From NCBI GenBank assembly GCA_050287085.1, contig JBNKBE010000016.1, positions 64,001-128,000 on the forward strand: a DNA stretch of 64,000 nt, written 5' to 3'. A program made the position numbers and the translations under genes. Each line of letters begins with the position of its first letter. The first letter of the stretch is position 1. The notes beneath the pieces are model-generated. The model was given only the letters and a program-made list of their open reading frames with translations. It was not told the DNA's origin and ran no database searches. The stretch comes from Polyangiaceae bacterium (GTDB lineage Bacteria > Myxococcota_A > Polyangia > Polyangiales > Polyangiaceae). Shown here piece by piece: positions 9,999-58,243 of the stretch.

Positions 9999-10270
9999 TG
10001 CGTAGCACTTCCCCTGCCAAGTAAGGAGTCGACCGCAGAATGCGTCCCGCTCGCTCGGGGCGGGCCCTGCGTTGGCGGGCGCTTGTATGTTGCCGCACGG
10101 ATCGCGTTCGGACTCGCATTCCGGGCTGAGTACGGTCTGGCGTTTTTGAGGTCGGTTCTTAGCAAAGAGTCCGCACCGGCCGTTGTTTGCCGAGAGACGA
10201 TGTCGGGCGTTTGGGAACTTGCGGTGGCGTGCCCTCGGGTACGTCCAGGGCGCGGCGTGGAGGTGCTTCG

Positions 10271-12643
10271 GTGAGCGAGTGGATTCGCATACGCGGCGCT
10301 GTTCAAGGGGTAGGCTTTCGACCTACCGTGGCGCGCATTGCGGGGAGCCAGGGACTTGCGGGCTTTGTGCGCAATGACGCTGACGGCGTCTTGATTGGGC
10401 TCGCGTCAGATGAACTCGGTTGTTCCAATTTCCTCTCCACCCTACTGACCGAGCTTCCGAGGCTCGCTCGTATTGAGAGTATCGAGCGAGAGCCCGCGCC
10501 GGTCGAGCCCCTCGCATTCCAGATACTCGGCAGTGAAGAGGGCGTCCCGAACACCGAGGTAGTGGCTGATGCCACGGTGTGCTCCGAGTGTGTCAGCGAG
10601 GTTCTCGATCCTGCGCAACGACGATACCGCTATCCACTCACGACCTGCACCAACTGTGGTCCGCGCTTCAGCATTGCGACGGCCATTCCCTTCGATCGGG
10701 CCAATACGACGCTTGCGGGATATCCTCTCTGCGAGCGCTGTCTCGAGGAGTATGGCGATGAAGGCGATCGCCGATTTCACGCTCAGGCCCTGGCCTGCCC
10801 CAGTTGTGGTCCACAGGTCCACTTTGAGCCGAGCAGCCAGCAGGGCGGCGAGCAGATCAGCCAGCAGGGCGGCGAGCAGGGCGGCGTGCGGGTAAACGAC
10901 GAAGATCCGATCGCCGCTGCCGCAGGGCGGATATTGGCGGGGGACATCGTGGCAATCAAAGGGGTGGGCGGCTACCAACTCTGTTGCGACGCAACCAACC
11001 CAAGCGCCGTCGCCACATTGCGGCAGCGCAAGCGTCGGCCTCACAAAGCATTTGCCATCATGGTGCCGGACCTTGCCGCAGCCGAAGCGCTGGGCCTATT
11101 GAATGAGGCCGAGCGGGCCGCGTTGAGTGGCTCCGCAGGGCCGATTGTCTTGCTGACTCGTCGAGCCGCGCGCGAGAATGACGTTTCGATTGCCGAGGCG
11201 GTGGCGCCCGATCAGCCACGCTTAGGCGTGATGCTACCAACCAGCCCGCTGCACGGCTTGCTCTTGGCTGGCGTTGGGAGGCCCATCGTATGCACGAGTG
11301 GCAATCTAACGAGTGAACCTCAATGTATTGACGACGACGACGCCCGGCAGCGACTAGCACGAGTCGCAGATTGGTTTGTCACTCACGATAGGGCGATCCA
11401 CAGCCGTGTTGACGATTCGGTTGCCGTACACCTAGCTGGCAAGATTCGGCTGCTTCGGCGTGCTCGCGGGTACGCCCCCAGTCCCCTAGCGCTGCCACCG
11501 GGGCTGGAAGACGCTCCCGCGCTGGTGGCTTTCGGCGCCGACCTCAAGGCCACGTTTGCGCTTGCCGCTGCTGGGTGGGCGACGCTGTCCCCACATCTCG
11601 GAGATATCGAAGAGCTGCGCACGTACGATGCATATCGACGTGCGCTTTCTCTGGCATCGGCGCTGCGGCGGCATCGTCCGGAGCTGGTGGTTTGCGATGC
11701 GCACGTGGGTTATCAGAGTCGCGCTTTGGCTCAGCAATTCGCCCAAGCGGCGGACTTGAGACTCGTTGAGGTCATGCACCACCACGCTCATATCTGCGCC
11801 TGCTTGGTGGACAATCGTTGGCCTCTGGACGCCGGACCCGTGCTGGGCCTCGCGCTGGACGGCCTCGGCGCTGGACCGCGCGGCGAACTTTGGGGTGGGG
11901 AACTACTTCACTGCGACTATCGGCGATTCGAACGTCTTGGATCGCTTGGGTCCGCGCCACTATTGGGAGGAGACGCCGCATCTCGCATGCCGTGGCGCTC
12001 GCTCTATGCACACCTTCGGTCTGCCGTGACGTGGGAAGAGCTTGAAACACAACATGCAAACCTCGAGGTTGTTGGCTGCCTGCGCTCGAAGCGCACTCCA
12101 CTGATGGAGCAGGTGTTGGACGATCCGGCGCTATCCCCCAGAGCGAGCTCTTCAGGTCGCTTCTTCGACGCCGTCGCGGCAGCTCTCGGTCTAGCCCGCG
12201 AAGCTGCTGAATACGAGGGGCAAGCCGCGATGCTATTGGAGGCTCTGGTTCCACCAACGCTCGAGGTTGAGTGCCTATCCGATTCGTACCCATTGCCCTG
12301 CCGGACCGATGCTGATGGCGTATGGAAGCTCGGAACTGGGGCTATCTGGCGACCGCTACTTCGAGACCTGGGAGCGGGGCTTCCGAGAGCTACGATCGCC
12401 GCGCGCGTCTTCGGAGGGGTGATTGGAGGGCTGGTTCAGCTCCTACGCTACGGACGAGAAAGAACGGGTCTAGCTACAGTCGTCCTGAGCGGTGGGTGCT
12501 TTCAGAACCGGGTGCTGCTCGAGGGGCTCACCCGCGCATTGCGAAGCGACGGGTTCGAACTGTTGTTGCACGAGCGCGTGCCGCCACACGACGGATGCAT
12601 TTCGCTTGGACAGGCCGCGATCGCCGCGGCCAGAGAGAGGTAG
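10271..12643 (+). CDS. hypF: Carbamoyltransferase HypF
   Basis: 'GAVQGVGFRP', zinc fingers CSEC..CTNC and CERC..CPSC, 'RRFHAQ', 'HHHAH', 'ALDG', 'LSGGCFQN', 'DGCISLGQ'. GTG start at 10271. Confidence 0.96.
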   Translation: MSEWIRIRGAVQGVGFRPTVARIAGSQGLAGFVRNDADGVLIGLASDELGCSNFLSTLLTELPRLARIESIEREPAPVEPLAFQILGSEEGVPNTEVVADATVCSECVSEVLDPAQRRYRYPLTTCTNCGPRFSIATAIPFDRANTTLAGYPLCERCLEEYGDEGDRRFHAQALACPSCGPQVHFEPSSQQGGEQISQQGGEQGGVRVNDEDPIAAAAGRILAGDIVAIKGVGGYQLCCDATNPSAVATLRQRKRRPHKAFAIMVPDLAAAEALGLLNEAERAALSGSAGPIVLLTRRAARENDVSIAEAVAPDQPRLGVMLPTSPLHGLLLAGVGRPIVCTSGNLTSEPQCIDDDDARQRLARVADWFVTHDRAIHSRVDDSVAVHLAGKIRLLRRARGYAPSPLALPPGLEDAPALVAFGADLKATFALAAAGWATLSPHLGDIEELRTYDAYRRALSLASALRRHRPELVVCDAHVGYQSRALAQQFAQAADLRLVEVMHHHAHICACLVDNRWPLDAGPVLGLALDGLGAGPRGELWGGELLHCDYRRFERLGSLGSAPLLGGDAASRMPWRSLYAHLRSAVTWEELETQHANLEVVGCLRSKRTPLMEQVLDDPALSPRASSSGRFFDAVAAALGLAREAAEYEGQAAMLLEALVPPTLEVECLSDSYPLPCRTDADGVWKLGTGAIWRPLLRDLGAGLPRATIAARVFGGVIGGLVQLLRYGRERTGLATVVLSGGCFQNRVLLEGLTRALRSDGFELLLHERVPPHDGCISLGQAAIAAARER

Positions 12644-12648
12644 ATGAA

Positions 12649-12945
12649 ATGTGCTTAGGCGTTCCGGGACAGATCGTTGCAATTGAGGATGCTGAACGGC
12701 GCATCGGTGTGGTCGATGTCGCTGGAACTCGCCGCACGGCGAACCTGGCGTGCGTCATCGACGAAGGACCGATCGAGGCGTGTATAGGTCAGTGGGTGCT
12801 TTTGCACGTAGGCTTCGCGATGAGTCGCATTGATGCGGAAGAAGCGCGGCGTACCATGGCGCTTCTTGTCGAGCTGGGCGAAGCCGAACAAGAGATAGCT
12901 GAAGGGCGCACCTCCGCTCAGCAGAAGGAGGTGCGCCGTGTCTGA
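12649..12945 (+). CDS. hypC: Hydrogenase maturation chaperone HypC
   Basis: N-terminal MCLGVPG and 'WVLLHVGFAM'. Confidence 0.96.
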   Translation: MCLGVPGQIVAIEDAERRIGVVDVAGTRRTANLACVIDEGPIEACIGQWVLLHVGFAMSRIDAEEARRTMALLVELGEAEQEIAEGRTSAQQKEVRRV

Positions 12946-13624
12946 TGCTTTGGCGCAGCTGTATCCGGGCATGGTCGACAACGCTCACGCGCGTGGCGCT
13001 AGTTCCGACGAACTCAGTGCCAGTGTACTCGTCAAGGCTCGCGAAAGCGCTCGCGTACGCGACGCCTTCTTCGAAGCCCATGCGACGTCTTTGGTCGCCA
13101 TGGCAGACGCCCTTTCGAAGGTGTTTCGAGCCGGAAATCGCTTGCTGACCATCGGAAACGGAGGGTCCGCTTGCGACGCGGCGCACCTGGCCGTGGAGTT
13201 CAATCATCCGGTGACGGTAGGGCGTCCGTCGCTTTCCGCGATTCACCTGGGCGCGGATGCCCCGACCCTGACGGCCGTGGGTAATGATGTGAACTTTGAC
13301 GCCGTATATCGTCGCATGGTCGCCACTCACGGCCGCGCCGGCGACGCGCTCTTTGCCTTTTCTACGAGCGGCAACAGTGGCAATCTGTTGGCCGGAGTCG
13401 AAGAGGCACATCGGCGCGGTTTGGTCACGTTTGCCCTGCTAGGCAATGATGGTGGAGCGTTGGCGCGCTCCGCATGCCTAGCCCATCATCTTGTTGTACC
13501 CAGCTCGAGCGTGCACCGCGTGCAGGAGACGCACTTACTCGCCTACCACATCTTGTGGGACTTGGTTCATACCCTTCTACACGCAACGCCCACAGACCCA
13601 CTGGCAAGCGGGGTGGCCTCATGA
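12938..13624 (+). CDS. SIS-domain protein, phosphoheptose isomerase (GmhA)-like
   Basis: 'GNGGSACDAAHLAVEF', 'TAVGND', 'FSTSGNS', 'RVQETH...YHILWDLVH'. Overlaps hypC and hypD. Confidence 0.9.
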   Translation: MSDALAQLYPGMVDNAHARGASSDELSASVLVKARESARVRDAFFEAHATSLVAMADALSKVFRAGNRLLTIGNGGSACDAAHLAVEFNHPVTVGRPSLSAIHLGADAPTLTAVGNDVNFDAVYRRMVATHGRAGDALFAFSTSGNSGNLLAGVEEAHRRGLVTFALLGNDGGALARSACLAHHLVVPSSSVHRVQETHLLAYHILWDLVHTLLHATPTDPLASGVAS

Positions 13625-14760
13625 AGTATGTTGAAGAGTTCCGAGATCCAAGCCAGGCGGCACCCATCGTGGCTCGTATCGAGTCGCTCATGCAGCGCAT
13701 ACGGCGCGAAGTAGGGCTGAAGAGTGTCAAAATCATGGAGGTATGCGGGGGACATACGCATTCCATCTTCAAGTTCGGATTGGAAAGCATGCTTCCGTCC
13801 GAGGTTGAGCTGGTACATGGTCCGGGGTGCCCAGTTTGCGTCCTGCCAGTGGGGCGGATAGACGACGCCATTGCGATCGCCGAGCAAGCGGATGTCATCT
13901 TCGCCACGTTCGGCGACGCAGTGCGAGTACCGGGTTCGAAAGGCAGCCTGCTTGCGGCCAAGGCTCGGGGCGCAGACGTGCGAACGGTTTATTCACCAGC
14001 GGATGCTTTGCGATTAGCCCGAAAGAACCCAGAACGTCAGGTGGTCTTTTTTGGCCTCGGATTCGAGACGACCGCGCCTTCGACGGCCTTGACGGTGATC
14101 GAGGCGGAGGCAGACGGTATCAGGAACTTCTCCGTCTTCTCCAACCACATCACCATTGTACCTACGTTGAAGGCCATTTTGGACTCGCCGGACCTCCGTT
14201 TGGATGGCTTCATCGGTCCAGGGCACGTCGCAATGGTAATCGGTACCAAGCCCTTCCAGTTCGTGTCGGAGCGGCACAAGAAGCCGCTTGTCATCTCGGG
14301 GTTCGAACCCTTGGACGTATTGCAGTCCCTCGTCATGTTGCTCGAGCAAATAGCCGGGCGGCAAGCGCGCGTGGAGAATCAGTACACGCGGCTGGTTCGG
14401 CAGAATGGGAATACGGCGGCGCTCCACGCTCTCACCGAGGTCTTTACGCTGCGGCCGTTCTTTGAGTGGCGGGGGCTCGGATCGGTCGATCATAGCGGTT
14501 TGACGTTTCGCGAGCGCTATCGTGCGTTTGATGCCGAACATCGTTTTACGGTGCCGGGTGTCTCCATTGCCGACCCCAAGGCGTGTCAGTGCGGCGAAGT
14601 CCTGAAGGGGGCGATCAAGCCCTGGGACTGCAAGGTATTTGGCACCGCCTGCACCCCGGAGACGCCGATTGGCTCATGCATGGTGTCGAGCGAAGGCGCC
14701 TGTGCGGCGCACTACAACTATGGGCGTCTGCACGCGATCCGCTTGAAGGTGACCACATGA
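13621..14760 (+). CDS. hypD: Hydrogenase maturation protein HypD
   Basis: MKYVEEFRD, 'MEVCGGHTH', 'GPGCPVC', 'GFETT', 'PGHV', 'CMVSSEGAC'. Confidence 0.97.
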   Translation: MKYVEEFRDPSQAAPIVARIESLMQRIRREVGLKSVKIMEVCGGHTHSIFKFGLESMLPSEVELVHGPGCPVCVLPVGRIDDAIAIAEQADVIFATFGDAVRVPGSKGSLLAAKARGADVRTVYSPADALRLARKNPERQVVFFGLGFETTAPSTALTVIEAEADGIRNFSVFSNHITIVPTLKAILDSPDLRLDGFIGPGHVAMVIGTKPFQFVSERHKKPLVISGFEPLDVLQSLVMLLEQIAGRQARVENQYTRLVRQNGNTAALHALTEVFTLRPFFEWRGLGSVDHSGLTFRERYRAFDAEHRFTVPGVSIADPKACQCGEVLKGAIKPWDCKVFGTACTPETPIGSCMVSSEGACAAHYNYGRLHAIRLKVTT

Positions 14761-15842
14761 GCGCCGCTAACATCGACGACACGCTATTTGCTCGCTTGGA
14801 GAAGTTTCGACGCCGCTCGGGCAAGGTGCGCCAATCGCGCATAGAACTCGCGCACGGCGGAGGAGGCAAAGCCATGCGCGACCTGCTCGATCACGTCGTG
14901 GTCGCAGAGCTGGGAGGTGCCGTTCAAGACCACGAAGACCAGGCGCGCATGGAGTTGGGCGCGTTGACCCCGGGCGACAAGCTGGCGATGACGACCGACG
15001 GCTATGTCGTAAGCCCCTTGCAGTTCCCCGGCGCGGATATCGGACGGCTGGCGGTGTGTGGAACCGTAAACGATCTCGCGGTCGGAGGTGCACGTCCGAT
15101 GTATCTCTCCTGTGGCCTCATCATCGAGGAGGGCTTGGACGTTCAGGTGTTGCGCACCGTGCTGCGTAGCATGGCGGCTGCAGCGGTCGAGGCGGGCGTG
15201 AGCATCGTGACCGGTGATACGAAAGTCGTGCCGCGAGGGGCGGCAGATCGGCTTTTCATTAGCACCACTGGGGTTGGACTCATCAGTTCGACATGTGACG
15301 TGGGAGCTCATCGTATCAAAGCGGATGATGTGGTGCTCATCAATGGATTCTTAGGGGACCACGCCGCTGCTATCATGGCGGCTCGAGGTGAGTTGCGCAT
15401 CGAGACGGACATCGCCAGTGACTGTGCCCCACTCAATACGTTGATCGCGCAAGTATTGGACAGCGTAGAGGTTCACGCGATGCGAGATGTGACCCGCGGC
15501 GGGCTCGCAGCGGTTCTCAATGAGCTCGCGCTGGCATCAGAAGTGGGCATGGTCGTAAACGAGCGACAGCTACCGGTTCGAGCGGAGGTGGCCGGCCTGT
15601 GCGAATTGCTGGGGCTTGACCCCGTGCATCTCGCCAACGAGGGAAAGGTGGCTGTGGTTCTGCCTGAGTCACAGGCAACACGTGCTCTTGAGGTCATGCG
15701 CGGCCATCCCTTGGGGCGCGACGCGGCGCTGATCGCGCGCTGCCGAGCTGCGCCGCCCGGCCTGGTAACGGTTGACACCGGATTCGGAGGCGAGCGTGTC
15801 TTGGACATGCTGGTGGGGGAGCCACTACCGAGGATCTGTTGA
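14757..15842 (+). CDS. hypE: Hydrogenase maturation protein HypE
   Basis: 'AHGGGG', 'GTVNDLAVGGA', 'GDTKVV', 'MRDVTRGGL', 'ANEGK', C-terminal 'PRIC'. Confidence 0.97.
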   Translation: MSAANIDDTLFARLEKFRRRSGKVRQSRIELAHGGGGKAMRDLLDHVVVAELGGAVQDHEDQARMELGALTPGDKLAMTTDGYVVSPLQFPGADIGRLAVCGTVNDLAVGGARPMYLSCGLIIEEGLDVQVLRTVLRSMAAAAVEAGVSIVTGDTKVVPRGAADRLFISTTGVGLISSTCDVGAHRIKADDVVLINGFLGDHAAAIMAARGELRIETDIASDCAPLNTLIAQVLDSVEVHAMRDVTRGGLAAVLNELALASEVGMVVNERQLPVRAEVAGLCELLGLDPVHLANEGKVAVVLPESQATRALEVMRGHPLGRDAALIARCRAAPPGLVTVDTGFGGERVLDMLVGEPLPRIC

Positions 15843-16171
15843 TGCATGAGTTGAGCGTTACCAAGAGCATCGTGTCGGCCTGCGCTGAGCGCGCGGGAAC
15901 CCGCAAAGTGCAAGCGGTGCATCTGCGGATTGGTCGCTTCTCCGGAGTAGAGCCCCACGCAGTGCGCTTCTGTTTTGAGCTCTGCGTAGCGGGAACAACT
16001 CTCGAAGGTGCTGAACTTGTGATCGAGGAGGTAGCCGGCAAGGGCCGATGCAAGGGGTGCGGGGAGCAGCTCGCTCTCGAGCTCCCCATCGCTCTTTGTC
16101 CCTGCGAGCGGAGAGAGAGCGTGGAACTGGTAGCCGGTGAAGAGCTGCTGATCGAGGCAATGGAGATATGA
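15842..16171 (+). CDS. hypA: Hydrogenase nickel insertion protein HypA
   Basis: N-terminal MHE motif, with CxxC and CPC Zn ligands. Confidence 0.93.
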   Translation: MHELSVTKSIVSACAERAGTRKVQAVHLRIGRFSGVEPHAVRFCFELCVAGTTLEGAELVIEEVAGKGRCKGCGEQLALELPIALCPCERRESVELVAGEELLIEAMEI

Positions 16172-16174
16172 CTC

Positions 16175-17104
16175 ATGTGTACGACTTGCGGATGTAATGG
16201 AATGGGGGCGACGGTATCGGGGCCTGATGGGGAACACACGCACGTGGCAGCTGATGGTACCGTAGTCACGCATCGTCATGATGGTGGAGGCCATACCCAT
16301 GTGCATGCGGGGCCAGCTAACTCCCGCGGCTTCGACACTCCGGCCGTTGATGGCCATGGGCACACTCACGGGCATTCGAACGCGGCCGACAACGTAGTGA
16401 AGCTCGAGCAACGCATTCTGCTGAAAAACGACCACATCGCACAACACAATCGCGAGTTCTTTGCCGACTCACATATCGCCGCCGTCAACCTCATGAGTTC
16501 ACCTGGGGCAGGAAAGACGACACTGCTCGAGTATACGCTGAAGAGACTGTCTGGTTCGGCAACCGTCTTGGAGGGAGATCAGGAAACGAGCCATGATGCT
16601 CAGCGAATACGAGCGACGGGCGCACGCGCCGTTCAGATAAATACGGGTACTGGTTGTCACCTCGACGCGGATATGGTGCGTCAAGGCATCGCTCAACTCG
16701 AGCCCGAGCCGTCGTCCATCTTGTTCATAGAAAACGTGGGCAATTTGGTTTGTCCGGCACTCTTTGATCTTGGGGAAACGGCGCGGGTCGTTCTGTTCAG
16801 TGTCACTGAAGGTGAGGACAAGCCTCTGAAGTACCCACATATGTTTCGACAAGCCGATCTCGTTCTACTGACCAAGACGGACCTGCTCCCGCACTTGAGG
16901 TTTGACGTAGGGGCTGCTTTGGACGCCGTCGAAAGAATCCGTCCCGGCGTCTCGATGCTGCGTGTCTCGACTCAGAGCGGAGAGGGAACCGATGCCTGGA
17001 TGAGCTGGCTGGAGCATTGTTTGAGTCACCTCAAAGATGGCACGTCCCTTGTGGCGAAGCGGGAGCCAGGGCTGGGGCGCCAAGCATTGTCCGAGAGGTC
17101 GTAG
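16175..17104 (+). CDS. hypB: Nickel incorporation GTPase HypB with a His-rich N-terminus
   Basis: MCTTCGC leader, His-rich segment, 'SSPGAGKTT', 'GCHLDA', 'ENVGNLVCP', 'EGEDKPLKYP', 'TKTD'. Confidence 0.97.
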   Translation: MCTTCGCNGMGATVSGPDGEHTHVAADGTVVTHRHDGGGHTHVHAGPANSRGFDTPAVDGHGHTHGHSNAADNVVKLEQRILLKNDHIAQHNREFFADSHIAAVNLMSSPGAGKTTLLEYTLKRLSGSATVLEGDQETSHDAQRIRATGARAVQINTGTGCHLDADMVRQGIAQLEPEPSSILFIENVGNLVCPALFDLGETARVVLFSVTEGEDKPLKYPHMFRQADLVLLTKTDLLPHLRFDVGAALDAVERIRPGVSMLRVSTQSGEGTDAWMSWLEHCLSHLKDGTSLVAKREPGLGRQALSERS

Positions 17105-17250: not shown

Positions 17251-18237
17251 ATGACGGCAACACTACTCTGGCTTCAAACAGGCGCCTGCAGCGGAGATAC
17301 GATGTCGATTCTCAATGCAGAGTCGCCCAATCTGCTTGAAGCGTTGCAAAACTACGGGATCGAGCTGCTTTGGCACCCTTCGTTGTCAACGGAGACGCCC
17401 AAGCAATTGCTTGAAATCATTAATCAGATCTGTGCAGGGAAACGGGAGCTGACCGTGCTGGCGGTTGAGGGTTCGATCGCCTTCGGGCCAGACGGGACGG
17501 GCATGTATGATCCCTTCCACGGACGCGCCAAGAAGGATATCGTGGCCGAGCTCGCAGAACAGGCCCAGTTCGTGGTTGCGATGGGCACGTGTGCGTCTTT
17601 TGGCGGTGTAGTAGCCGCTGAGCCGAACCCCACGGACGCAACGGGGCTGCAGTTCCTCCGCGCGAAGAAGGAGGGGGCTCTGTTGGCTCCGGACTGGGTA
17701 TCGCGAGGCGGGCTACCCGTGGTGAATGTAGCAGGGTGTCCGGCACATCCGAGAACGATGGTCGAAACGCTGATGACCTTGCTCTTGGCGGGTACGATCG
17801 AACTCGATCCACTCAACCGTCCAGCAACCTACTTCGATCGCGTTGTGCATCAGGGCTGCACTCGCAATGAGTATCACGAGTACAACGTTGAAGAGTCGGG
17901 TTTCGGCGGTCAAGGGTGCTTGTACTTCAACATGGGTTGCCAAGGGCCGTACACGCAGGGGCGCTGCAACACCGATCTGTGGAACGAGGTAAACAGCAAG
18001 CCGCGTGCGGGCGTGCCTTGTTATGGGTGTACGGCACCTACATTCCCGAAGGCGCAAGATCTTCTTAAGACGGAGAAGATTGGGGCCGTACCGGTCACCA
18101 TGCCGCGAGGCGTGAGTCGTCCGCAGTATATGGCCTACAAGGGGTTGGCGAAAGCGGCCGGACCCGAGCGACTGGTCAAGCTTCGACGCAAAGCCCCAGC
18201 CGCAGAGGCGAGTTCAAAAACCAGCGCCGCTGAATGA
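17251..18237 (+). CDS. [NiFe]-hydrogenase small subunit, cytoplasmic, group-2 type
   Basis: 'LLWLQTGACSGDTMS', 'GTCASFGG', 'GCPAHP', 'HQGCTR', 'GCLYFNMGCQGP', 'PCYGC'. No Tat signal and no membrane anchor. Confidence 0.93.
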   Translation: MTATLLWLQTGACSGDTMSILNAESPNLLEALQNYGIELLWHPSLSTETPKQLLEIINQICAGKRELTVLAVEGSIAFGPDGTGMYDPFHGRAKKDIVAELAEQAQFVVAMGTCASFGGVVAAEPNPTDATGLQFLRAKKEGALLAPDWVSRGGLPVVNVAGCPAHPRTMVETLMTLLLAGTIELDPLNRPATYFDRVVHQGCTRNEYHEYNVEESGFGGQGCLYFNMGCQGPYTQGRCNTDLWNEVNSKPRAGVPCYGCTAPTFPKAQDLLKTEKIGAVPVTMPRGVSRPQYMAYKGLAKAAGPERLVKLRRKAPAAEASSKTSAAE

Positions 18238-18247
18238 GGAGTGAGCC

Positions 18248-19783
18248 ATGTCACGAGAGATAATCCAGCTGGACATGAATCGAGTCGAGGGAGATCTCGA
18301 GATCAAGCTGCAGCTAGACGACAACGTTATCGCCGACGCGTGGTGTATCGGCACCATGTACCGGGGATTCGAACAGATCTTGGTGGGGCGAGCTGCGCGA
18401 GACGGTCTGGTCATCACGCCGCGCATCTGCGGCATCTGCGGCACCGCGCACCATGCTTGTGCCGCGACGGCACTCGAAACTGCGTTTGGTCTTGCGATAG
18501 CACCGAACGGCACACGCGTGAGAAACGCGTGCCTGTTGTCCGAGGAAAGCCAGAGCGACATGCGCCACAGCTTTCTGATGTTCACGGTCGACTTCTGTCA
18601 TGCCCGCTACGCGGGGCACCCCATGTATCAGACGCTGGTGGACGCGTTCGAGCCGTTCAAAGGGAGGATCTATCGTGAGACGATCGAACACTCCAAGGAG
18701 ATATTGAAGATCGTCGCGCTGTTCGGGGGACAGTGGCCTCACTCCACGTATATGGTTCCTGGCGGCGTAAGCTGCGTTCCTGACAATTCGCGCGTGCTCA
18801 ACGCCCTGGCGATCGCGGATCGCTACGCAAATTGGTATGAGCGAAGCATCTTGGGATGTTCCATCGAGCGGTGGTCCCAGGTGGGTTCGCTTGCGGATAT
18901 CGAGACCTGGCTCGATGAATCCGAGGCGCATGCCAATAGCGCGATGGGTCTATTCATTCGCTTTGGTCGGGAGATCGGTCTTCACAAGGCCGGTATCGGA
19001 CAGGGCAATCTGCTCAGCTACGGCTCGTGTTATGACCCTGATGCCTGGCAGCCTCCTTTCGACAACCACGCGACCTGGCGGAGTGCGGGCTTCTTCGACG
19101 CGGAGACCAAGACGCTAGAGAAGCTGGATCATCAGCTTATCGCAGAACACGTGCGCCACTCCTTCTACGTGGACTATGAGGGGGGTAAACATCCGTGGCA
19201 GGGCGTTACCATGCCGGACTACCTGCCTGATACAGAGAAGTACTCGTGGGCAAAGGCGCCGAGATACAAGGACAAAGTGGTTGAGGCAGGTCCACTCGCG
19301 GATCAGATCTGTGCCGGAGATCCGCTGGTTCGTGCACTATTCGACGCAGAGGGCTCGAACAGCTGGCTACGGCAGTTCACACGAATACATCGGCCAAGCC
19401 AGTCGCTGCCCAAACTGCGTTCCACGTTGTTGGAGCTTCTGGAACGTCAGGCGGACCCATACGTAATCAATCATATCATACCCACCGACAGAGCCCGAGG
19501 CTTGGGTGCGGTTCAGGCCGCCCGGGGCGCCCTGGCGCACTGGGTGGAGTTTGAAGACGCCAAGATCACGCGCTATCAGGTCATTACGCCGACAGCCTGG
19601 AATGCCTCACCCCGCGATACCGCTGGGCGACGAGGGCATTGGGAGGAGTCAATGATCGGCACGGAGGTCCAAGACATCAATGACCCGATAGAGATCGGGC
19701 ATATCATCCGTTCACACGACGCCTGCTTGGTGTGCACGGTGCATATGCTGGACACAGGTGATAAGTTCAGATTTGGAGTGTGA
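18248..19783 (+). CDS. [NiFe]-hydrogenase large subunit, group-2 type
   Basis: 'NRVEGDL', L1 'TPRICGICGTAH', 'GGQWPH', 'RGALAHW', 'TPTAWN', and L2 'RSHDACLVCTVH' followed by a 12-aa C-terminal tail. Confidence 0.96.
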   Translation: MSREIIQLDMNRVEGDLEIKLQLDDNVIADAWCIGTMYRGFEQILVGRAARDGLVITPRICGICGTAHHACAATALETAFGLAIAPNGTRVRNACLLSEESQSDMRHSFLMFTVDFCHARYAGHPMYQTLVDAFEPFKGRIYRETIEHSKEILKIVALFGGQWPHSTYMVPGGVSCVPDNSRVLNALAIADRYANWYERSILGCSIERWSQVGSLADIETWLDESEAHANSAMGLFIRFGREIGLHKAGIGQGNLLSYGSCYDPDAWQPPFDNHATWRSAGFFDAETKTLEKLDHQLIAEHVRHSFYVDYEGGKHPWQGVTMPDYLPDTEKYSWAKAPRYKDKVVEAGPLADQICAGDPLVRALFDAEGSNSWLRQFTRIHRPSQSLPKLRSTLLELLERQADPYVINHIIPTDRARGLGAVQAARGALAHWVEFEDAKITRYQVITPTAWNASPRDTAGRRGHWEESMIGTEVQDINDPIEIGHIIRSHDACLVCTVHMLDTGDKFRFGV

Positions 19784-20274
19784 TGAGTACTTCGGCGGTA
19801 CCGCTATTTGGTACCCATACGCGGGTCGTATGCTTCGGCAACAGGCTGCACGGCGACGACGCTTTTGGGTGTCATGTACATGATGCGTTGGCGGCGCACG
19901 GGATCCCCGGGGAGGCGAGTCTGCACGATGCTGGCACGTCCGGACTCGGCGCCGTCTTGTTCTTCGAGGGCTGCCGGCGGGCAATTGTGGTGGACGCTAT
20001 TGGTCCGAGCAAGACCCCAGGGAGGTTGCGTGCGCTCAGCGTCAGAGAGGCTCTCGACGTCGACCGGCCCCTCTCTACCCACGCACAAGGCTTGGGCTAT
20101 CTGTTCTCGGCCCTCTCCATAGCGCTGCCAAGCATGCCGGCAATCACCATTGTCGGCGTGGACATCGACGCCGTCGATACCTTTTGCGAGACACTCAGTC
20201 GACCCGTGGCGTGCATGGTGGAGCCAGCGCGGGACATGGTACTTGATTTTCTTTGCGAGCAAGAAGCGGGATAG
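19783..20274 (+). CDS. Hydrogenase maturation endopeptidase (HybD/HupD/HoxW family)
   Basis: 'FGNRLHGDDAFG', 'DAGT', 'IVVDAI', 'STH'. Overlaps the large-subunit stop codon. Confidence 0.9.
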   Translation: MSTSAVPLFGTHTRVVCFGNRLHGDDAFGCHVHDALAAHGIPGEASLHDAGTSGLGAVLFFEGCRRAIVVDAIGPSKTPGRLRALSVREALDVDRPLSTHAQGLGYLFSALSIALPSMPAITIVGVDIDAVDTFCETLSRPVACMVEPARDMVLDFLCEQEAG

Positions 20275-20276
20275 AA

Positions 20277-22241
20277 ATGGACGCTGCAACTTCGAATGAG
20301 GCAAGCCTTGACCGCGTAAGGGCTTTGGAGATGGAAGTCGAGGCTTTGAGCTCCGCGGCTCGTGAACAAGAGCGCATGGTGCTCGAGGGTTACGAGAAGA
20401 TGGACGAGATGCTGCGACTCGTCGAAGAGCAGCGGGACCGCCTGGAGGCATCGAACGGGGATCTGGCCCGCGCCCAGGCCTACTTGGACAACGTGGTGGA
20501 CACCATCGACGAGGCCTTGTTGGTGCTAAATCCTGCCGGCAAGGTCACGTTGGTAAACTCGAAGCTGCTAAGTCTCACGGGCTTTGAGGTTGGCGACGTG
20601 CTTGGGGGCGACCCGCTGGAGTTCTTCTGCGCGAAGGAGCTTTCGGACCTGGCAGGGGGGGAAGCGGTGGATAGCGGCGCAGCCCTGGCACGCGTGCTCA
20701 CCAAGAAGCGTGGCGAGCACTTGGACGGTCACTTGATTACTCGCTCTGGAGACCGCCTCGCTCACCTATTTCGCTGGTCGAATCTCTACACGAAAGCCGG
20801 AAAACGAGAAGGTGTGGTCATCGTTGGCGCGGATGTGCGTCGACTGCGAGCGACCCTCAACGCCATAGAGCGCGCCAATGCCGAGATGCGTCTGATCTTC
20901 GCCACGGTAGATCAGGGTCTGATGTCGATCGACAGCAATGGGACAATAGCGGCCGAACGCTCTGATCGGGTAGAGGAGTGGTTCGGCGACGTGGTCGAGG
21001 GGTCGAGAGTTTGGGAGTATTTGGGAGCGAAGGATCCCACCTTCGCCGGTATGCTTCGACTCGGGTGGGAGACGGTCTGCGAAGGATTCATGCCACTAGA
21101 GGTGTGCGTGGAGCAATTACCAAAGCGCATGCGACGTGGCGAGACTACGTATGACGTTGGCTATAACGTCATTGTGGACGGCGAGACGGTTACCGGCGCG
21201 TTGATAGTCGTCACAGACGTTAGCATTCAGCTGAGAGAGGCTGAAGAGCGCGCGCTGCGCGAAGAGCTGGCGGATACCGTTGAGCGCATCACTCGCGATC
21301 GTCAGGGTTTTCTGGAGTTCTTCGAAGAGACTCGAAGGATCATGGCCACACTGCTACGTCCCACAAAGGGGCAAGAGCTAGACAAGGTGACGACTTGTCG
21401 CGCGCTGCATACGCTGAAGGGCACGTGCGCCCTCTTCGGAATTCAAAGCGTGGCACGGGCGAGCCACGCCGTTGAGGAGAAGATACAGAGCTTTGGCGGT
21501 CCGCTCGGTCCTGAGGAGAGGGATGCGCTGGGTGCAGTCTGGGAGGTATTCGAGGAGCGTGTGCGGAGACTGTCCGGCGACGCAAACGCCCTCCAGGTAA
21601 ACCGTGACGAGCACGCGCAGCTCTTGGCCTTGCTTGAAGCGGGCGACGAGCCTGCGGCGGCGCTCCGACTGGCGCGGCGTCTTGCGTTGGAACCGACCAC
21701 AAGCCGTCTGCAGCGGATGGCCAAGCAGGCACAGGCGCTCGCACTTCGGCTCGAGAAAGGGGAAATCGACGTGGTGGTTTCTTGTGGAGAGGAGCGCTTT
21801 GACGCGGCACATTGGTCCGCGTTCTGGGCGTCGCTGGCCCATGTCGTGCGCAACGCGGTGGATCACGGTTTGGAAGCGCCGGACGTTCGCAAGGGGGCCG
21901 GCAAGTCCGAGCGTGGACAACTCACCCTGCGCACCGAGCGTCGAGCCAATGAGGTTGTGATTGAGGTGGCGGACGATGGCGCAGGGATCGATTGGGAAAA
22001 GCTTCGAGCTATAGGTCGGCAGCGCGGGCTGCCTCACAGCAGCGAGCAAGAGTTGTTGGACCTGTTGTTTGTAGGTGGCGTATCGACTCGCGACGAGGCG
22101 ACAGAGACGTCCGGTCGCGGCGTCGGCATGGACGCAGTCAAAGCGGAGTGCGATGCGTTGGGTGGCCGCATCGAGGTGCAATCACGCGCGGGGGAAGGAA
22201 CGCATTGGCGCTTCGTTTTCAACGCCCATCACGTTCTCTGA
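20277..22241 (+). CDS. PAS-PAS-HPt-HATPase sensor kinase (CheA-like, no CheW domain)
   Basis: N-terminal coiled coil and two PAS-like segments; HPt 'RALHTLKG'; CheA-type N box 'LAHVVRNAVDHGLE', G1 'DDGAGID' and G2 'SGRGVGMDAVK'. The protein ends right after the HATPase domain. Confidence 0.9.
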   Translation: MDAATSNEASLDRVRALEMEVEALSSAAREQERMVLEGYEKMDEMLRLVEEQRDRLEASNGDLARAQAYLDNVVDTIDEALLVLNPAGKVTLVNSKLLSLTGFEVGDVLGGDPLEFFCAKELSDLAGGEAVDSGAALARVLTKKRGEHLDGHLITRSGDRLAHLFRWSNLYTKAGKREGVVIVGADVRRLRATLNAIERANAEMRLIFATVDQGLMSIDSNGTIAAERSDRVEEWFGDVVEGSRVWEYLGAKDPTFAGMLRLGWETVCEGFMPLEVCVEQLPKRMRRGETTYDVGYNVIVDGETVTGALIVVTDVSIQLREAEERALREELADTVERITRDRQGFLEFFEETRRIMATLLRPTKGQELDKVTTCRALHTLKGTCALFGIQSVARASHAVEEKIQSFGGPLGPEERDALGAVWEVFEERVRRLSGDANALQVNRDEHAQLLALLEAGDEPAAALRLARRLALEPTTSRLQRMAKQAQALALRLEKGEIDVVVSCGEERFDAAHWSAFWASLAHVVRNAVDHGLEAPDVRKGAGKSERGQLTLRTERRANEVVIEVADDGAGIDWEKLRAIGRQRGLPHSSEQELLDLLFVGGVSTRDEATETSGRGVGMDAVKAECDALGGRIEVQSRAGEGTHWRFVFNAHHVL

Positions 22242-36506: not shown

Positions 36507-37022
36507 TCATTGACCAAACCGCCTCGACGCTCTCACCGTGCATTCAGGAAAGCCAACGCAAGCATACCCCACCCTACGAGCGTTTCAATCCACCGCTAAG
36601 GGCACGACAACGTTGAATTCGCTCCAACTGCGAATTCTCCTCTTGAGGGCGAATTGCCCCGGCCACGCCTCAGGCTCACTTGGGGCTGACTCGGTTCCAG
36701 TTTCCGCGGAAACGGCTGTGCTGATCGAAATGTCACCAGTGGGCCCGGCTTGTTGCAACCTGAAGTCACTAGGCTGGTCCGGGGCTAGCAGGCGGTGAAC
36801 CTTTCGTAGGCACGTCTCAAAGAGTCGAGCGCGGAGCGTCGTAGCGAGTAGCCTCCAGCGCCGGTCCGTCGCGCCGAGACGCGCGGCGCGAGATGAGCCG
36901 AGGCGCAACCTGTGCTTCCTCTCGCACGCGGCAATACGCGGCGGACGGCGCGGTAGTGGGATGAGCGGCGGAGCCGACTAATCGACTTTCAGATATCGAC
37001 GGTGGTGATTACTCTATCTCGC

Positions 37023-37898
37023 GTGGAATGGCTCAACTTCAGGCATCTGTACGCCTTCTGGTGTGTCAGCAAATACGGCGGATTTCAGAAGGCGGCGCAG
37101 CGCATCGCGGTGTCGCAGTCCGCGTTAAGCGAACAGGTGCAACAGCTGGAAGAATACCTCGACGAACATCTGCTGGAACGCACCACGCGCTCCCTCAAGA
37201 TCACCGAGAGAGGCGTTGCGCTCCTAGCGTATGCCGACGAGATATTTGCACGCAGTCAGCTGATCAATCATCTGTTCAAGGAGAAGAACGAGAGCCCACA
37301 ACCTTCGGAGATCCGCATCGGAATGGTAGGCGGCATCTCTCGGAATTTCTTGTTCAGATTGATCCATCAGAACCTTCATGAGCGACGGGGGCTGCACATT
37401 CGCGTGGTCGATGGTTCTCTGGACGAACTCAACACGTTGCTGAAGGGCTACGAACTCGATCTGGTGTTTACGCTGGATGTTCCGCGGACACGAGACCTCG
37501 TGACGCTTGGCTATAAGACGGTCGGGGCGAGTCCCATCTGCCTCGCGGGTCGACCCGACATGGTCGCCAAGGTAAAGCGACGTCGCAGCCAGGCGCTGAA
37601 GGTCGAGCTCTTCATGTTCAATCAGCCTCGTGAAGGGAGCCAGCTGGAGGATACGCTGCGCTCCAGATTCAACTTGGACATGACTGTTTCGGTTTCGACA
37701 GACGACATCTCGTTGCTTCGCTTTCTTGCCAACTCGAGTCGGGGTCTGGCTGTCATTCCGGAAGTCGGAATCCAGGAAGATCTCGACGCTGGAATATTGT
37801 CCAAGGTTCGGCTGACCGAGTGTCTTCCTGCCGTCTTTCACGCCGTGTTCTTGAAGAACGGCTTTCATCACCAGCTGGTCCAGGACTTTCTCTCCTAG
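37023..37898 (+). CDS. LysR-family regulator, NhaR-like
   Basis: GTG start, then 'EWLNFRHLYAFW...AAQRIAVSQSALSEQVQQLEEYL'. Confidence 0.9.
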   Translation: MEWLNFRHLYAFWCVSKYGGFQKAAQRIAVSQSALSEQVQQLEEYLDEHLLERTTRSLKITERGVALLAYADEIFARSQLINHLFKEKNESPQPSEIRIGMVGGISRNFLFRLIHQNLHERRGLHIRVVDGSLDELNTLLKGYELDLVFTLDVPRTRDLVTLGYKTVGASPICLAGRPDMVAKVKRRRSQALKVELFMFNQPREGSQLEDTLRSRFNLDMTVSVSTDDISLLRFLANSSRGLAVIPEVGIQEDLDAGILSKVRLTECLPAVFHAVFLKNGFHHQLVQDFLS

Positions 37899-37917
37899 AA
37901 GTTCGCCCCTCTTAGCT

Positions 37918-37954
37918 ATCGAGATTTTCGAATGGTCATATCGAAATAATCTAA
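37918..37954. promoter_or_regulatory. Two candidate LysR boxes (T-N11-A) upstream of dabB
   Basis: ATCGAgattttCGAAT at 37918 and ATCGAaataatCTAA at 37940, 22 bp apart in an AT-rich spacer. Confidence 0.5.
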
Positions 37955-37992
37955 CTGACCTAATAGTGACTACTCCCTAAAGTAGTCGGACC

Positions 37993-39630
37993 ATGCAGCT
38001 GGCTTGCGTCACTACGACGTCAACGGGCATTCCTCACGGCTTGTACGTTTGCGCCCTACTACTCGTGTGCGCCTTGGTAGGGCAGGGGCTGAGTCTAGCA
38101 ATTGCAAGTGCGCGGCGAAGCTCTCCCCACGGATACCCGAGCGTTTTGCTGGCGGTGGCTGCTCTCTCGGCCGCCGCCTCTGTGGTCATCGGCGACGGCT
38201 TCATCGCGCTTAGAGTCGGCGCGCCTGGGCTGGACACGCCTTACGCGTTGGGCGTCGGAATATGGGTCGACCGCGTGACTGCTGCGATGGCGACGCTCGT
38301 CTGCTTCGTGGGCCTGGTTGTCTATCGGTTCTCGCAAACCTACTTGCGCTCCGAGGTGGGGCGCGACGCATTTCTGCGGAAGCTAGCACTCGCCGTGCTG
38401 TTGGTGCAGGTATTTGCACTGAGCAGCGGCTTGCTCGGGCACGCGGTGCTCTGGTTGTTCTTGAGCGTGTCGGTGCATCGCTTGCTTCGGCACTACGAGG
38501 AGCGCCCCTTGGCGCGATTGGCTGCCAAGAAGAAGTTTCTCATCAGCCGAGTGGGGGACGCGTTCATGGTCTCGGCGCTGGTTCTCATGTTCGGGCAATA
38601 CGGCAGTCTGGACATTGAGGAGCTCCAGCATCTTCGCGTCGCTACCAGCGGCGGGGAGCGACTAGCAGATGTGCTCTCCGGGGCGTTCTTGGTGCTGGCT
38701 GCTCTGGCCAAGTCTGCTCAGTTTCCTCTGCACACCTGGCTGCCCGATGCGATGGACGCACCCACGCCGGTGTCAGCTCTGATGCATGCAGGAATCGCCA
38801 ATGCGGGCGCGTTCCTGTTGCTTCGAGCTGCCGCTTTGCTGGACGGCAACGCTCTTGCGCTCTGTCTTCTTATCGCTGTCGGAGGGACGTCGGCGTGTTT
38901 CGGGGTGCTGATAGGCAGCCTTCAGCCGAGCATCAAATTGAAACTTGCGTGGTCGACGATAGCGCAGATGGGCTTTCTGTTCTTTGAGCTGGGCCTTGGA
39001 TTGACCGGCGCGGCGGCGTTGCACCTGGCGGGTCATGCGGTGTACAAGGCCCATCGCTTTCTGCGTTCCGGCACGCTCTGTGCCAAAGGCAGACCGTTGC
39101 GACCTCGTCTTGGGTCCGTGCTGAGTGTGGTCCTCGCTGCCGCGTTGGCAGCTGGCGTGGGCTTGTGGGGGCTTGCGAGGTGGGGCGGGTTCGACACGGC
39201 CGGCCACGCGCCTCTGGCTATGGTCTGGGCGCTTGCAATGAGTCAGTTCCTGATCGGACCGCCTGAGGTGCCGCTCCGGATCCGCGCCTGGACGTTGCTG
39301 TTGTTTGGCGGCGGTCTTGGAGCCCTCGCCTGGGCAGCGGAGACGGCGATTACGCCGTGGTTTGGAGTATTGTCAAGTCCACTTCACAGCAGCCAGAGCG
39401 CTTGGCTGATTGCCTGGGCTGTTGCGGGGCTGGCGGGAGTTGTGGCGGTTCTTTGTGCGGTGGGGGAGTGGCGGAGTCAGTGGCTCGAGAGGCTATCGGT
39501 CTACCTGCTCTCCGGCTTCTACCTCTCCGACTTTCAGGATCGGCTCACGATGGCGCTGTGGCCCGACGTGGTGAACAGGCAGCCAATCCGCGCGCGACTC
39601 ACTAGACGGTTCGAAGGAGCCCTCAGATGA
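37993..39630 (+). CDS. dabB: DabB: proton-conducting membrane subunit (NuoL/MrpA-like) of an inorganic carbon pump
   Basis: 'AAKKKFLISRVGD', 'KSAQFPLHTWLPDAMDAPTPVSALMHAGI', 'LAWSTIAQMGF', 'HAVYKAHRFL'. Coupled to a DUF2309 gene. Confidence 0.87.
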   Translation: MQLACVTTTSTGIPHGLYVCALLLVCALVGQGLSLAIASARRSSPHGYPSVLLAVAALSAAASVVIGDGFIALRVGAPGLDTPYALGVGIWVDRVTAAMATLVCFVGLVVYRFSQTYLRSEVGRDAFLRKLALAVLLVQVFALSSGLLGHAVLWLFLSVSVHRLLRHYEERPLARLAAKKKFLISRVGDAFMVSALVLMFGQYGSLDIEELQHLRVATSGGERLADVLSGAFLVLAALAKSAQFPLHTWLPDAMDAPTPVSALMHAGIANAGAFLLLRAAALLDGNALALCLLIAVGGTSACFGVLIGSLQPSIKLKLAWSTIAQMGFLFFELGLGLTGAAALHLAGHAVYKAHRFLRSGTLCAKGRPLRPRLGSVLSVVLAAALAAGVGLWGLARWGGFDTAGHAPLAMVWALAMSQFLIGPPEVPLRIRAWTLLLFGGGLGALAWAAETAITPWFGVLSSPLHSSQSAWLIAWAVAGLAGVVAVLCAVGEWRSQWLERLSVYLLSGFYLSDFQDRLTMALWPDVVNRQPIRARLTRRFEGALR

Positions 39631-42014
39631 CTTCCTTTCATCCCACCCACGTGAGTTCGCGGGCCCGTCCAACTGTCGTTCGCGACCTCGACCACGTGAT
39701 AGCCCGCGCGTGTCGCCGTATCCCGCCATTGTTCAACGTTCAGGACATGGCGGCTGTAAACCCGTTCATTGGCTTCATCGACCAGGGCTTTGTCGACGCT
39801 GCAGTGGCCGTTGAACAGACTTTTCACGAGCAGATATTGCCAGGACCGCCAGGACCGGACGGTCCTCGCGTTCAAAGCGTTGCGGACGTCCTGATGGGCA
39901 CTCATTGGGCAGCATGCGTGCGCAATCTCAGGGACAGCCTGACGCACTTCTTGTCGTTCTACCTGGACGAGGATCAGGCTTGTATCCAGCCGCGGTTCAA
40001 AGAGCTGCCGCTCTTGGCGGCGTATATTCGATATGCCAGGGTCGATCGCAAGCCGGAGCTTTGGGGGCTCAGGGGATATCGGTCGCTGGTCTGTGCCTTG
40101 AGCTCAGAGTCCAGGCGGGCCATCGAGAGTCTGAGCGCGCCACTAGACCTGTGTTCCACGAGACTTGAGCTGTATTTCACGCGCCTATTGGCCTCGCTTG
40201 CGGGTTATGCTGGTTTCCTTCGCTCCCTGGGTTGCCGGGCGGACGCCGGGTACGTTGGCGCGACGCAGGACTTGCTTGCCATCCTGCTGTTCCAGGAGCA
40301 GGTCCTGGCGCGGTGTTTCGGCGTGCGATCGGGGCCTCGCTTCACGCCAGGTGCCCCCGACTTCTTCGAAGATCGGCAGAAGCGCGCTGCAGCGCTCCGC
40401 GCGCGAGAGCAAAGCGTACGGCAGGGTATTGTCGACCAGCTCACCCCGGTGCCGCTCAGCGGACGGCGTGCTCAGTTGCAGCTGCTATTCTGCATCGACG
40501 TGCGCGCCGAGCCCTATCGCCAACTGCTGGAGCGTGACGCCAGGGTGGAGACCGTGGGGATGGCTGGTTTCTTTGGCGTGCCCCTCGCCAAAGAAGCGGA
40601 TGGCAAGCAGCGTCCGCACTGTCCGCCCCTGGTGCAGCCCACCATCACCCTCGTCGACAGGGCGCCGGCGGATGATACGAAGGCGCAGCTGGGGGCCTCT
40701 TTCAAATCCGTATTTGAGGCGCCGCTTTCAAGCCTACCCTGCGTGGAAGCATGGGGACTGAGCTACCTCTTCAAGTTGGTGCGAGACGCATTCCCGGACG
40801 GCAAAGTCCAACACGCGGAGCGCGACGAAGAGTGCACGTGTGATGCCAGCGTGGAAGCGCTGCCATTGGAGACGAAGAAGACGCTTGCTATAGGTATACT
40901 CAGTGCCGCCAGTTTGCCGCGCCCGTATGGACGCTTGGTCGTCTTTGTCGGTCATGGTAGTTCGGTGAGCAATAACCCGCAGGGAGCAGGACTCGCGTGT
41001 GGTGCCTGCAGTGGTCATAGTGGTGCACTCAACGCGCGGTTTGCGGCGGCGCTGTTGAACAATGAGGTGACCCGCTCCGCTCTGGCGGGGACCCCCTTGG
41101 CGATCGACCAGGAGGTCGTGTTCTTGGCGGCCGAGCATGACACGATGACTGAGCGGGTGAAGGTCTTCGTTCCGGCCATGTTTCCGGCTTCTCATCGCGA
41201 AGATCTGGAGTTGTTGCGCGCCGAATTGGATGCGGCGACCGAGGCCCGCTGCGAGCAACGACGGCATTCGACACCAGGACTGAGCGGCACGGGACCGGAG
41301 GCCTTCGTCAGGCGTTCTCGAGACTACGCTGAGAGCCAGCCAGAGCTGGGGCTTGTGGGCAATGCGGTATTTATCATTGGGCGTCGCGCGCTCAGTCGCG
41401 CTCGTGGGCTGGGGGCCCGTGCCTTCCTGCACTCCTACGATGAAGCTCAAGACGGCAGCGGCGAAGTGCTGGAGCAGATTCTGACGGCGCCGGTGTTGGT
41501 CGCCAGCTGGATCAACATGCAATACTATGCCTCCACCGTGGCCCCCCGCATCTTTGGCGCTGGCAGAAAGACGCTACACAACATCACGGGGGACTTTGGC
41601 GTCGTCGAAGGAAGCCGTGGAGATCTGGTGGTCGGTTTGGCTCGCGAGTCCTTATGGCAGGGAGGCCGTAGCGTTCACGAACCGCTGCGACTCCAGATAT
41701 TGGTTGAAGCAAGCCTCAAGAGGCTCCTACCCATCGTTCAACGGCATGGGGTTCTGCGTCAGCTGGTTGAGGGGGAATGGCTGACAATGAGCGTCATTCG
41801 CGATACAAGGATGGGGCTCAGGGTGGAAACCGTAGAGCCGTCGAGCTTGACGCCACGCCGCCCAGGGCGGGGCGCAGGGGTCCTGCGGGGCGCAGGGGTC
41901 CTGCGGGGCGCCCCGGTCTCAGCCGTCTCCGACTCAGCCAAGTCCCAAGTTTGGCTCGATGGAGCTAGAGCGCGCTCAGTCCACCATCGACGGCTAGTTC
42001 TTGACCGACGATGA
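39627..42014 (+). CDS. dabA: DabA (DUF2309): beta-carbonic-anhydrase-like subunit of an inorganic carbon pump
   Basis: 'AVNPFIGF', Zn ligands 'FCIDVR', 'GHGS..NNP' and 'ACGACSG', plus 'FLHSYD', 'WINMQYYAS' and 'HEPLRL'. Confidence 0.92.
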   Translation: MTSFHPTHVSSRARPTVVRDLDHVIARACRRIPPLFNVQDMAAVNPFIGFIDQGFVDAAVAVEQTFHEQILPGPPGPDGPRVQSVADVLMGTHWAACVRNLRDSLTHFLSFYLDEDQACIQPRFKELPLLAAYIRYARVDRKPELWGLRGYRSLVCALSSESRRAIESLSAPLDLCSTRLELYFTRLLASLAGYAGFLRSLGCRADAGYVGATQDLLAILLFQEQVLARCFGVRSGPRFTPGAPDFFEDRQKRAAALRAREQSVRQGIVDQLTPVPLSGRRAQLQLLFCIDVRAEPYRQLLERDARVETVGMAGFFGVPLAKEADGKQRPHCPPLVQPTITLVDRAPADDTKAQLGASFKSVFEAPLSSLPCVEAWGLSYLFKLVRDAFPDGKVQHAERDEECTCDASVEALPLETKKTLAIGILSAASLPRPYGRLVVFVGHGSSVSNNPQGAGLACGACSGHSGALNARFAAALLNNEVTRSALAGTPLAIDQEVVFLAAEHDTMTERVKVFVPAMFPASHREDLELLRAELDAATEARCEQRRHSTPGLSGTGPEAFVRRSRDYAESQPELGLVGNAVFIIGRRALSRARGLGARAFLHSYDEAQDGSGEVLEQILTAPVLVASWINMQYYASTVAPRIFGAGRKTLHNITGDFGVVEGSRGDLVVGLARESLWQGGRSVHEPLRLQILVEASLKRLLPIVQRHGVLRQLVEGEWLTMSVIRDTRMGLRVETVEPSSLTPRRPGRGAGVLRGAGVLRGAPVSAVSDSAKSQVWLDGARARSVHHRRLVLDRR
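41867..41911 (+). repeat. 18-bp tandem repeat x2.5 in the 3' tail of dabA
   Basis: gcggggcgcaggggtcct twice, then gcggggcgc; encodes RGAGVL RGAGVL RGA. Confidence 0.85.
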
Positions 42015-51638: not shown

Positions 51639-51663
51639 ATCTCTAGCTTGAACGGATGACATC

Positions 51664-58201: not shown

Positions 58202-58243
58202 TCGGGGACAGCAAATATCCGTCGCAAGGGAAGAGGAGCATCT

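Follow-up and report, generated by a model that had tools for sequence, protein, structure and literature searches.

A group 2c [NiFe]-hydrogenase operon with a class III-type histidine kinase in a Polyangiaceae bacterium

Genes of the hydrogenase-kinase operon

The 64,000-nucleotide stretch of DNA analysed here (the window; positions 64,001 to 128,000 of contig JBNKBE010000016.1, GenBank assembly GCA_050287085.1, from a Polyangiaceae bacterium) contains an operon in which a group 2c [NiFe]-hydrogenase and its maturation protease are followed directly by a class III-type histidine kinase. The small subunit (17251..18237; 328 residues, identified by Pfam and alignment) has no twin-arginine translocation (Tat) leader, the large subunit (18248..19783; 511 residues) carries the motifs L1 (RICGICG) and L2 (SHDACLVCTVH) and a 12-residue tail, and the endopeptidase (19783..20274, starting at ATG 19783 or GTG 19780) scores above the TIGR00072 cut-off and matches Pfam HycI. 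The kinase (20277..22241, ATG at 20277; 654 residues) runs from a coiled coil through PAS, PAS-like and HPt (His378) domains to a CheA-type HATPase, with no CheW domain. A preliminary description of this DNA had reported that the four genes are co-oriented with gaps of at most 10 bp, and the junctions agree: all four lie on the + strand, 10 bp separate the subunit genes, the protease gene overlaps the large-subunit stop (-1), and 2 bp lie between protease and kinase.

A complete maturation block on the same strand, absent from the preliminary description, ends 146 bp upstream of the small subunit. It comprises hypF (10187..12643; Pfam HypF_C_2, zf-HYPF and Acylphosphatase, given as the longest open reading frame (ORF), the real start possibly lying later), hypC (12649..12945; HupF_HypC), a SIS-domain gene (12938..13624; SIS_2), hypD (13621..14760; HypD, E 1.7e-153), hypE (14757..15842; AIRS and AIRS_C), hypA (15839..16171; HypA) and hypB (16175..17104; cobW/HypB/UreG, with a His-rich N-terminus). 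All 11 genes, seven in this block and four behind it, are intact. The SIS-domain product is GmhA-like, with GmhA models under their cut-off, and such a gene also sits between hypC and hypD in the hyp blocks of three other loci (L001, L024 and L025). A scan for promoters and terminators returned nothing beyond chance. The reported absence of cytochrome b and diaphorase genes held in the 17 + 15 window ORFs scanned with Pfam, the other long ORFs being only listed. Operon G+C is 0.58-0.61 compared with about 0.62 in the surroundings, a dip within the window's own range.

Class of the hydrogenase and of the kinase

The preliminary description had taken the enzyme for a cytoplasmic group 2 hydrogenase distinct from respiratory group 2a and had suggested a large-subunit phylogeny to place it. 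In both trees that we built, the large subunit nests with diguanylate-cyclase-linked enzymes, including an Ideonella 2c anchor, and stands apart from group 2a and from HoxC; Shimodaira-Hasegawa-like approximate likelihood-ratio test (SH-aLRT) support is 99 in a 76-row quick IQ-TREE analysis and 100 in a 47-row FastTree analysis. The anchor (L017) was identified from the HydDB table, and its large subunit resembles the HydDB Ideonella 2c entry in a by-eye comparison of one stretch. The window L2 motif is identical to the one assigned to 2c in the available portion of PMC4853749, where the printed consensus is SFDxCLVCTVH. By its sequence the enzyme plainly belongs to [NiFe] group 2c; that it is no respiratory 2a enzyme agrees with the earlier reading.

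In the available part of HydDB (PMC5037454), group 2c is labelled 'diguanylate cyclase-linked (putative)' with an 'Undetermined role', and in the 16 of 20 supplementary 2c rows covered the partner is always a diguanylate cyclase/phosphodiesterase and no row comes from a myxobacterium. Membership of the class is defined by sequence, and cyclase linkage is its label. The window operon lacks the linked cyclase; since a kinase stands in its place and retains the partner's input module, we regard the operon as a variant of 2c. It shares with canonical loci the small-large-protease-partner order, the L2 motif, the small-subunit tail and the partner's coiled coil and PAS module, and differs in that the partner is a GGDEF/EAL protein there, in the HydDB rows covered, and an HPt/CheA-type kinase here. 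The preliminary description had also singled out the C-terminal tail and protease. Both are present, the 12 residues extending beyond CLVCTVH and the HycI/hydrog_prot protease lying next, but canonical 2c loci have them too; they are the normal 2c state and therefore not new.

The small subunit is cytosolic by sequence, with neither Tat leader nor anchor, in line with the earlier report. It begins MTATLLWLQ. When it is aligned with the small subunit of Huc from the PDB, its residue 3 pairs with the first residue of that chain, so there is no Tat leader. Cluster ligands inferred from the alignment are C13/D16/C114/C163, H200/C203/C223/C230 and C239/C257/C260 (K250). The closest solved structure to the large subunit is Huc, a group 2a enzyme (PDB 7UUS/7UTD/8DQV; E 6.5e-112), which shares the small-subunit proximal Asp and medial Lys. 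In contrast to Huc, the window enzyme falls in a separate clade, keeps the distal His, and has a partner in signalling rather than a link to respiration.

The group 2b sensor system HoxBC-HoxJ-HoxA of Cupriavidus necator pHG1 likewise combines a group 2 enzyme located in the cytoplasm with an adjacent PAS kinase, and has a related small-subunit tail and Ile at the first gas-channel position. However, HoxC ends at CTVH without an adjoining protease, HoxJ is a HisKA kinase and HoxA a sigma-54 activator, whereas the window operon has the tail and protease and neither a HisKA kinase nor a HoxA/HupR regulator. Large-subunit identity to HoxC is 33%. The gas-channel positions are Ile63/Met111 here and Ile62/Phe110 in HoxC; judged by the role of these residues in the available portion of PMC11023054, the pair would be compatible with O2 tolerance. 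No other [NiFe] large subunit was found in the window's genome (G000) by tblastn and PF00374, and no [FeFe] hydrogenase by PF02906, so regulation of uptake-hydrogenase genes in the manner of HoxJ/HoxA has nothing to act on in this genome.

The kinase matches Pfam PAS, Hpt and HATPase_c, with no match to CheW, HisKA or H-kinase_dim at E<=0.001, and its motifs are intact (His378 within HTLKG, Asn526 and the G boxes). A structural model (predicted local distance difference test 83.6, predicted template modelling score 0.49) contains a 70-residue N-terminal helix, two PAS-like folds, a helical bundle and the ATPase, which superposes on CheA P4 with a TM-score to target of about 0.8-0.88. Only 4 residues follow the ATPase stretch, compared with 142-161 in the three CheAs of the same genome, and CheA models score far under their cut-off. 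Class II CheA has an N-terminal HPt, a dimerisation domain and a C-terminal CheW domain. The preliminary description had called the partner a class II, CheA-type kinase; this did not hold, because the CheW domain is missing and the HPt is internal, behind N-terminal sensory domains. The P4-like ATPase and the HTLKG motif are shared with CheA, but the window operon has no chemoreceptor, cheW, cheR or cheB. Class III kinases (HKIII), as Adebali et al. are said to have defined them in 2017, combine sensory domains, HPt and a CheA-type ATPase without CheW, and are reportedly associated with a single-domain regulator and CheX. By this definition the sequence fits class III. The absence of a dimerisation domain in class III kinases is noted in the available text of PMC6963811, and PMC6501615, likewise available in part, also treats the class; the window kinase gives no HisKA or H-kinase_dim match, yet its model shows helices at 443-491. 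As far as those sources go, it shares with class III kinases the sensory domains, internal HPt, CheA-type ATPase and lack of CheW or dimerisation-domain matches, as well as a single-domain regulator and CheX in related loci and PilT in the genomes checked, and differs in its hydrogenase-linked input module.

The C-terminal part of the kinase is most similar to paralogous kinases in the host genome. Among CheW-less HPt-HATPase kinases of G000, one lies directly behind a FIST-domain gene (C42:5901-8698), one directly behind a hemerythrin gene (C9:131458-133524), and one is fused to a Ser/Thr kinase-AAA-GAF protein (C3:49931-55903). At C36:36256-37495, a cheY-like gene precedes an HPt ORF and a HATPase ORF that lie in different frames and represent a kinase of this type that is split or frameshifted.

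A shared input module and its pairing with the hydrogenase

The kinase input module (about residues 6-195; 20292..20861, + strand) consists of the long helix and a PAS domain and is common to group 2c partners. Over residues 1-191 the kinase aligns with the N-terminal end of the Ideonella 2c diguanylate cyclase/phosphodiesterase (E 2e-12), and the module stretch also matches 21 of 21 other partner N-termini tested. In a search of 383 family genomes that scored 8 candidates in each, only G000, G404 and G454 have the full module (E<1e-55). All three are in the search alignment, and in each the module adjoins a 2c enzyme; the other 8 matches are partial (E about 1e-13). A helix-only profile gave a single significant match among 30,749 ORFs of G000, the window kinase, itself in the training set. 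A word-index search with residues 1-200 returned only the query; an index-free search found the relatives.

We scanned 31 proteins that match along the module, taken from 150 library matches listed. Their outputs comprise 13 CheA-type ATPases, 7 HisKA kinases, 5 SpoIIE phosphatases, 3 GGDEF/EAL proteins, 2 class III cyclases and 1 fragment. With the module constant and the outputs differing, the output has been swapped on a conserved input. The fusions to SpoIIE phosphatases and adenylate/guanylate cyclases (P0133, P0136, P0138, P0140, P0141, P0143 and P0150) are in some cases from Leptospiraceae, to go by their source names. In many 2c partners a Rieske domain at the N-terminus precedes the module (L005, L026, L044, L072, L074 and L084); the window kinase has none. 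We also considered a special kinship with the HoxJ N-terminus, which aligns with the module in hhalign at E 6e-11. Generic coiled coil-PAS controls reach E 9e-14. HoxJ offers a suggestive KMDE-like match, and its alignment starts at column 26 compared with 38-78 in the 19 controls. Because 7 of these 19 outscore HoxJ and the helix-only profile misses it, we do not claim the kinship.

The pairing of a 2c hydrogenase with an HPt/HATPase kinase was seen directly at four loci: the window, L001, L026 and L117. L001, also from Polyangiaceae, has the same 11-gene order at 60-85% identity, its large subunit being 82% identical. In L026 (one of 74 metagenome loci) and L117, the small-subunit gene is preceded by that of a longer, Rieske-bearing kinase, which has cheX and cheY as neighbours. 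Indirect pairing came from assembly data: 11 of the 13 CheA-type module clusters, one of them L026's own lineage, share their exact longest-contig size with one of 120 2c large-subunit clusters, as do 2 of 5 SpoIIE clusters and 0 of 2 cyclase clusters; about 0.7 matches would be expected by chance in 42 sizes, given 1 collision in 7,140 pairs. Kinase and large-subunit divergence are correlated (mirror correlation 0.57, p 0.0004, 14 pairs). Large subunits whose partner is a short kinase group in one clade (support 97; 7 labelled, 3 unknown); a second clade (support 98; 8 labelled, 1 unknown) holds those with long Rieske-bearing partners. Two kinase fusions may have arisen independently: the ATPase tree parts the two kinase types, but no branch reaches 95.

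The pairing is rare. It occurs in 1 of 17 congeners and 3 of 383 family genomes, and among the 8 family genomes with a 2c-like enzyme, the window kinase type is present in 3 and class I hybrids, identified by BLAST, in 5. Synteny of hydrogenase and kinase, proposed earlier as a check, thus recurs at four loci but is not general. No link between a group 2c hydrogenase and a class III kinase appeared in the literature searched, a set that leaves out most subscription papers, with Greening 2016 and Adebali 2017 among those that might mention one. Likewise, no hydrogenase-linked input to a class III kinase appeared there, including the available portions of PMC12810054, 10.64898/2026.10.05.756691, PMC8396549 and PMC10305171.

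Proposed signalling and alternative readings

The small subunit ends in a HoxB-like C-terminal tail at about residues 270-310. Counting duplicates, 70 of 95 small-subunit records have its motif; it is missing from a partnerless 2c clade, 2a enzymes and HoxB, which make up the other 25. Buhrke et al. in 2004 are said to have found that the HoxB tail binds HoxJ. The available part of PMC6978683 supports the HoxBC-HoxJ interaction only. A predicted complex of two small subunits and two modules, modelled without the large subunit, scored 0.10 where the mark is 0.32, and carries no weight either way. The partnerless, 2c-derived clade, in which no adjacent signalling gene was seen (L002, L003, L004, L027-L034, L045, L056, L058, L071, L079, L089 and L091), lacks both this tail and the distal-cluster motif; by its sequence it may represent a two-cluster enzyme with another role.

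On the output side, the preliminary description had predicted a chemosensory-type phosphorelay, which gains genomic support from the cheX and cheY genes beside the kinase in L026 and L117 and from a CheY orthologue in G000. The CheYs of L026 and L117 both find their best G000 match at C1:227974 (108 vs 70 bits and 128 vs 74 bits). This CheY gene (C1:227974-228339) lies behind a cheX (C1:227388-227921), and G404 has the same pair, its CheY being 77% identical; regulator and CheX are thus adjacent to the kinase in L026 and L117 and present only in trans in G000 and G404. A single orphan cheX in G000 had been considered and was rejected, as five CheX-family genes were found. The genome encodes three PilT proteins above cut-off and a large flagellar cluster (C21:38500-72800) with flagellins, FliG, hook and export genes; FliG and flagellin are also present in G404 and G454. 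L117 runs on into a receiver-GGDEF gene.

The anatomy of the system, the intact kinase motifs, the assignment to group 2c, the common input module and the conserved linkage of the genes are all observed. From these we propose that the group 2c hydrogenase serves as a cytoplasmic H2 (redox) receptor for the class III histidine kinase, with output through CheY and CheX, and put the probability of this reading at roughly 0.6. With like confidence, such a relay would be a new output variant of the uncharacterised 2c class. In this mechanism, the hyp proteins and protease would mature the hydrogenase, H2 would reduce its Fe-S chain, and the small-subunit tail would dock onto the kinase's N-terminal coiled coil and PAS domain, by analogy with the reported HoxB-HoxJ contact. 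The redox state of the hydrogenase would then alter autophosphorylation at His378. Phosphate would pass to a stand-alone CheY-like regulator, most likely the C1 protein, and would be removed by the neighbouring CheX, and the process tuned would most likely be motility by type IV pili or the flagellum.

Several observations weigh against this reading. H2 sensing has been demonstrated for no group 2c enzyme, HydDB in its available part giving the role as undetermined. The window operon has no response regulator or cheX, and the link to the C1 CheY/CheX pair is orthology in trans in a genome with five CheX-family genes and no fewer than seven further HPt-HATPase kinases without CheW, which may share the candidate CheY. 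One module kinase (P0123) lacks the HPt histidine. The longest-contig-size pairing is indirect, and the three full-module genomes were themselves in the search alignment. The tail is found, related but diverged, in 2a enzymes and HoxB as well, and the partnerless 2c enzymes form a single clade, so tail loss counts as one event. G000 is 96.8% complete, and further PF00374 genes occur in G404 (one) and G454 (two). The FliM-like ORF at C21:63082-63969 matches FliMN_C only, not PF02154.

The hydrogenase-kinase link could be real while the system responds to general redox poise or to O2 and not to H2 as a cue, or while its output is something other than motility, reached through another receiver. 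The FIST and hemerythrin genes ahead of paralogous kinases, the Rieske domain of the long kinases, the reuse of the module by SpoIIE phosphatases, class III cyclases, HisKA kinases and GGDEF/EAL proteins, and the receiver-GGDEF gene of L117 all point this way. We nevertheless consider it unlikely: retention of the whole hyp set and the protease implies selection for a functional NiFe site, and at both loci with a local receiver a single-domain CheY is paired with CheX.

Improbable in our view is a Huc-like, 2a-type high-affinity uptake hydrogenase whose kinase is merely co-transcribed or controls its expression. Huc is the closest solved structure and has the proximal Asp, medial Lys, Ile63 counterpart and protease maturation in common with the window enzyme, but both trees place the latter with 2c, its distal His ligand is retained, the operon holds no electron-acceptor gene, and the kinase carries a 2c-specific module and diverges in step with the large subunit. 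There is a very small chance that the operon is a laterally moved passenger without a working link to host signalling in G000. Its very patchy distribution (1 of 17 congeners, and a 2c-like enzyme of any kind in only 8 of 383 family genomes) and lower G+C would suit a passenger, whereas the 11 intact genes, the order kept in L001 at 60-85% identity, the kinase C-terminus nearest host paralogues and a G+C dip inside the window's range argue against one.

Elsewhere in the window, a LysR gene precedes a DabB/DabA-type inorganic carbon transporter pair (37002-42011), and a single run at 50340-59434 contains ferritin-like, LodA-like oxidase, flavoprotein, aldehyde dehydrogenase, PLP decarboxylase, formyltransferase and argininosuccinate synthase genes.

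Group 2c has so far been a predicted H2 sensor without an assigned mechanism. The small soluble set of parts described here, with direct phosphorylation as readout, turns the question of whether 2c senses H2 into a bench assay. The likely docking module can be named, its reuse with different outputs is demonstrated by sequence, and class III kinases would gain a chemically defined input through a 2c receptor. The position of the hydrogenase beside a chemotaxis-like kinase suggests that hydrogen may steer the movement of these bacteria. More tentatively, and with considerable doubt, we picture receptor-free hydrogen taxis, in which the matured hydrogenase would bind the class III kinase and steer pili or flagella via CheY/CheX without a chemoreceptor array, as part of a gas panel whose sister kinases would read nitric oxide (FIST) and O2 (hemerythrin); the hydrogenase pathway would be kept purely for information, and the coiled coil-PAS module would serve as a transferable adaptor between hydrogenases and at least five output types. 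If the output is motility, H2 would be a cue for the behaviour of an organism in which we found no uptake hydrogenase, and under receptor-free hydrogen taxis that cue could locate fermenting or N2-fixing neighbours.

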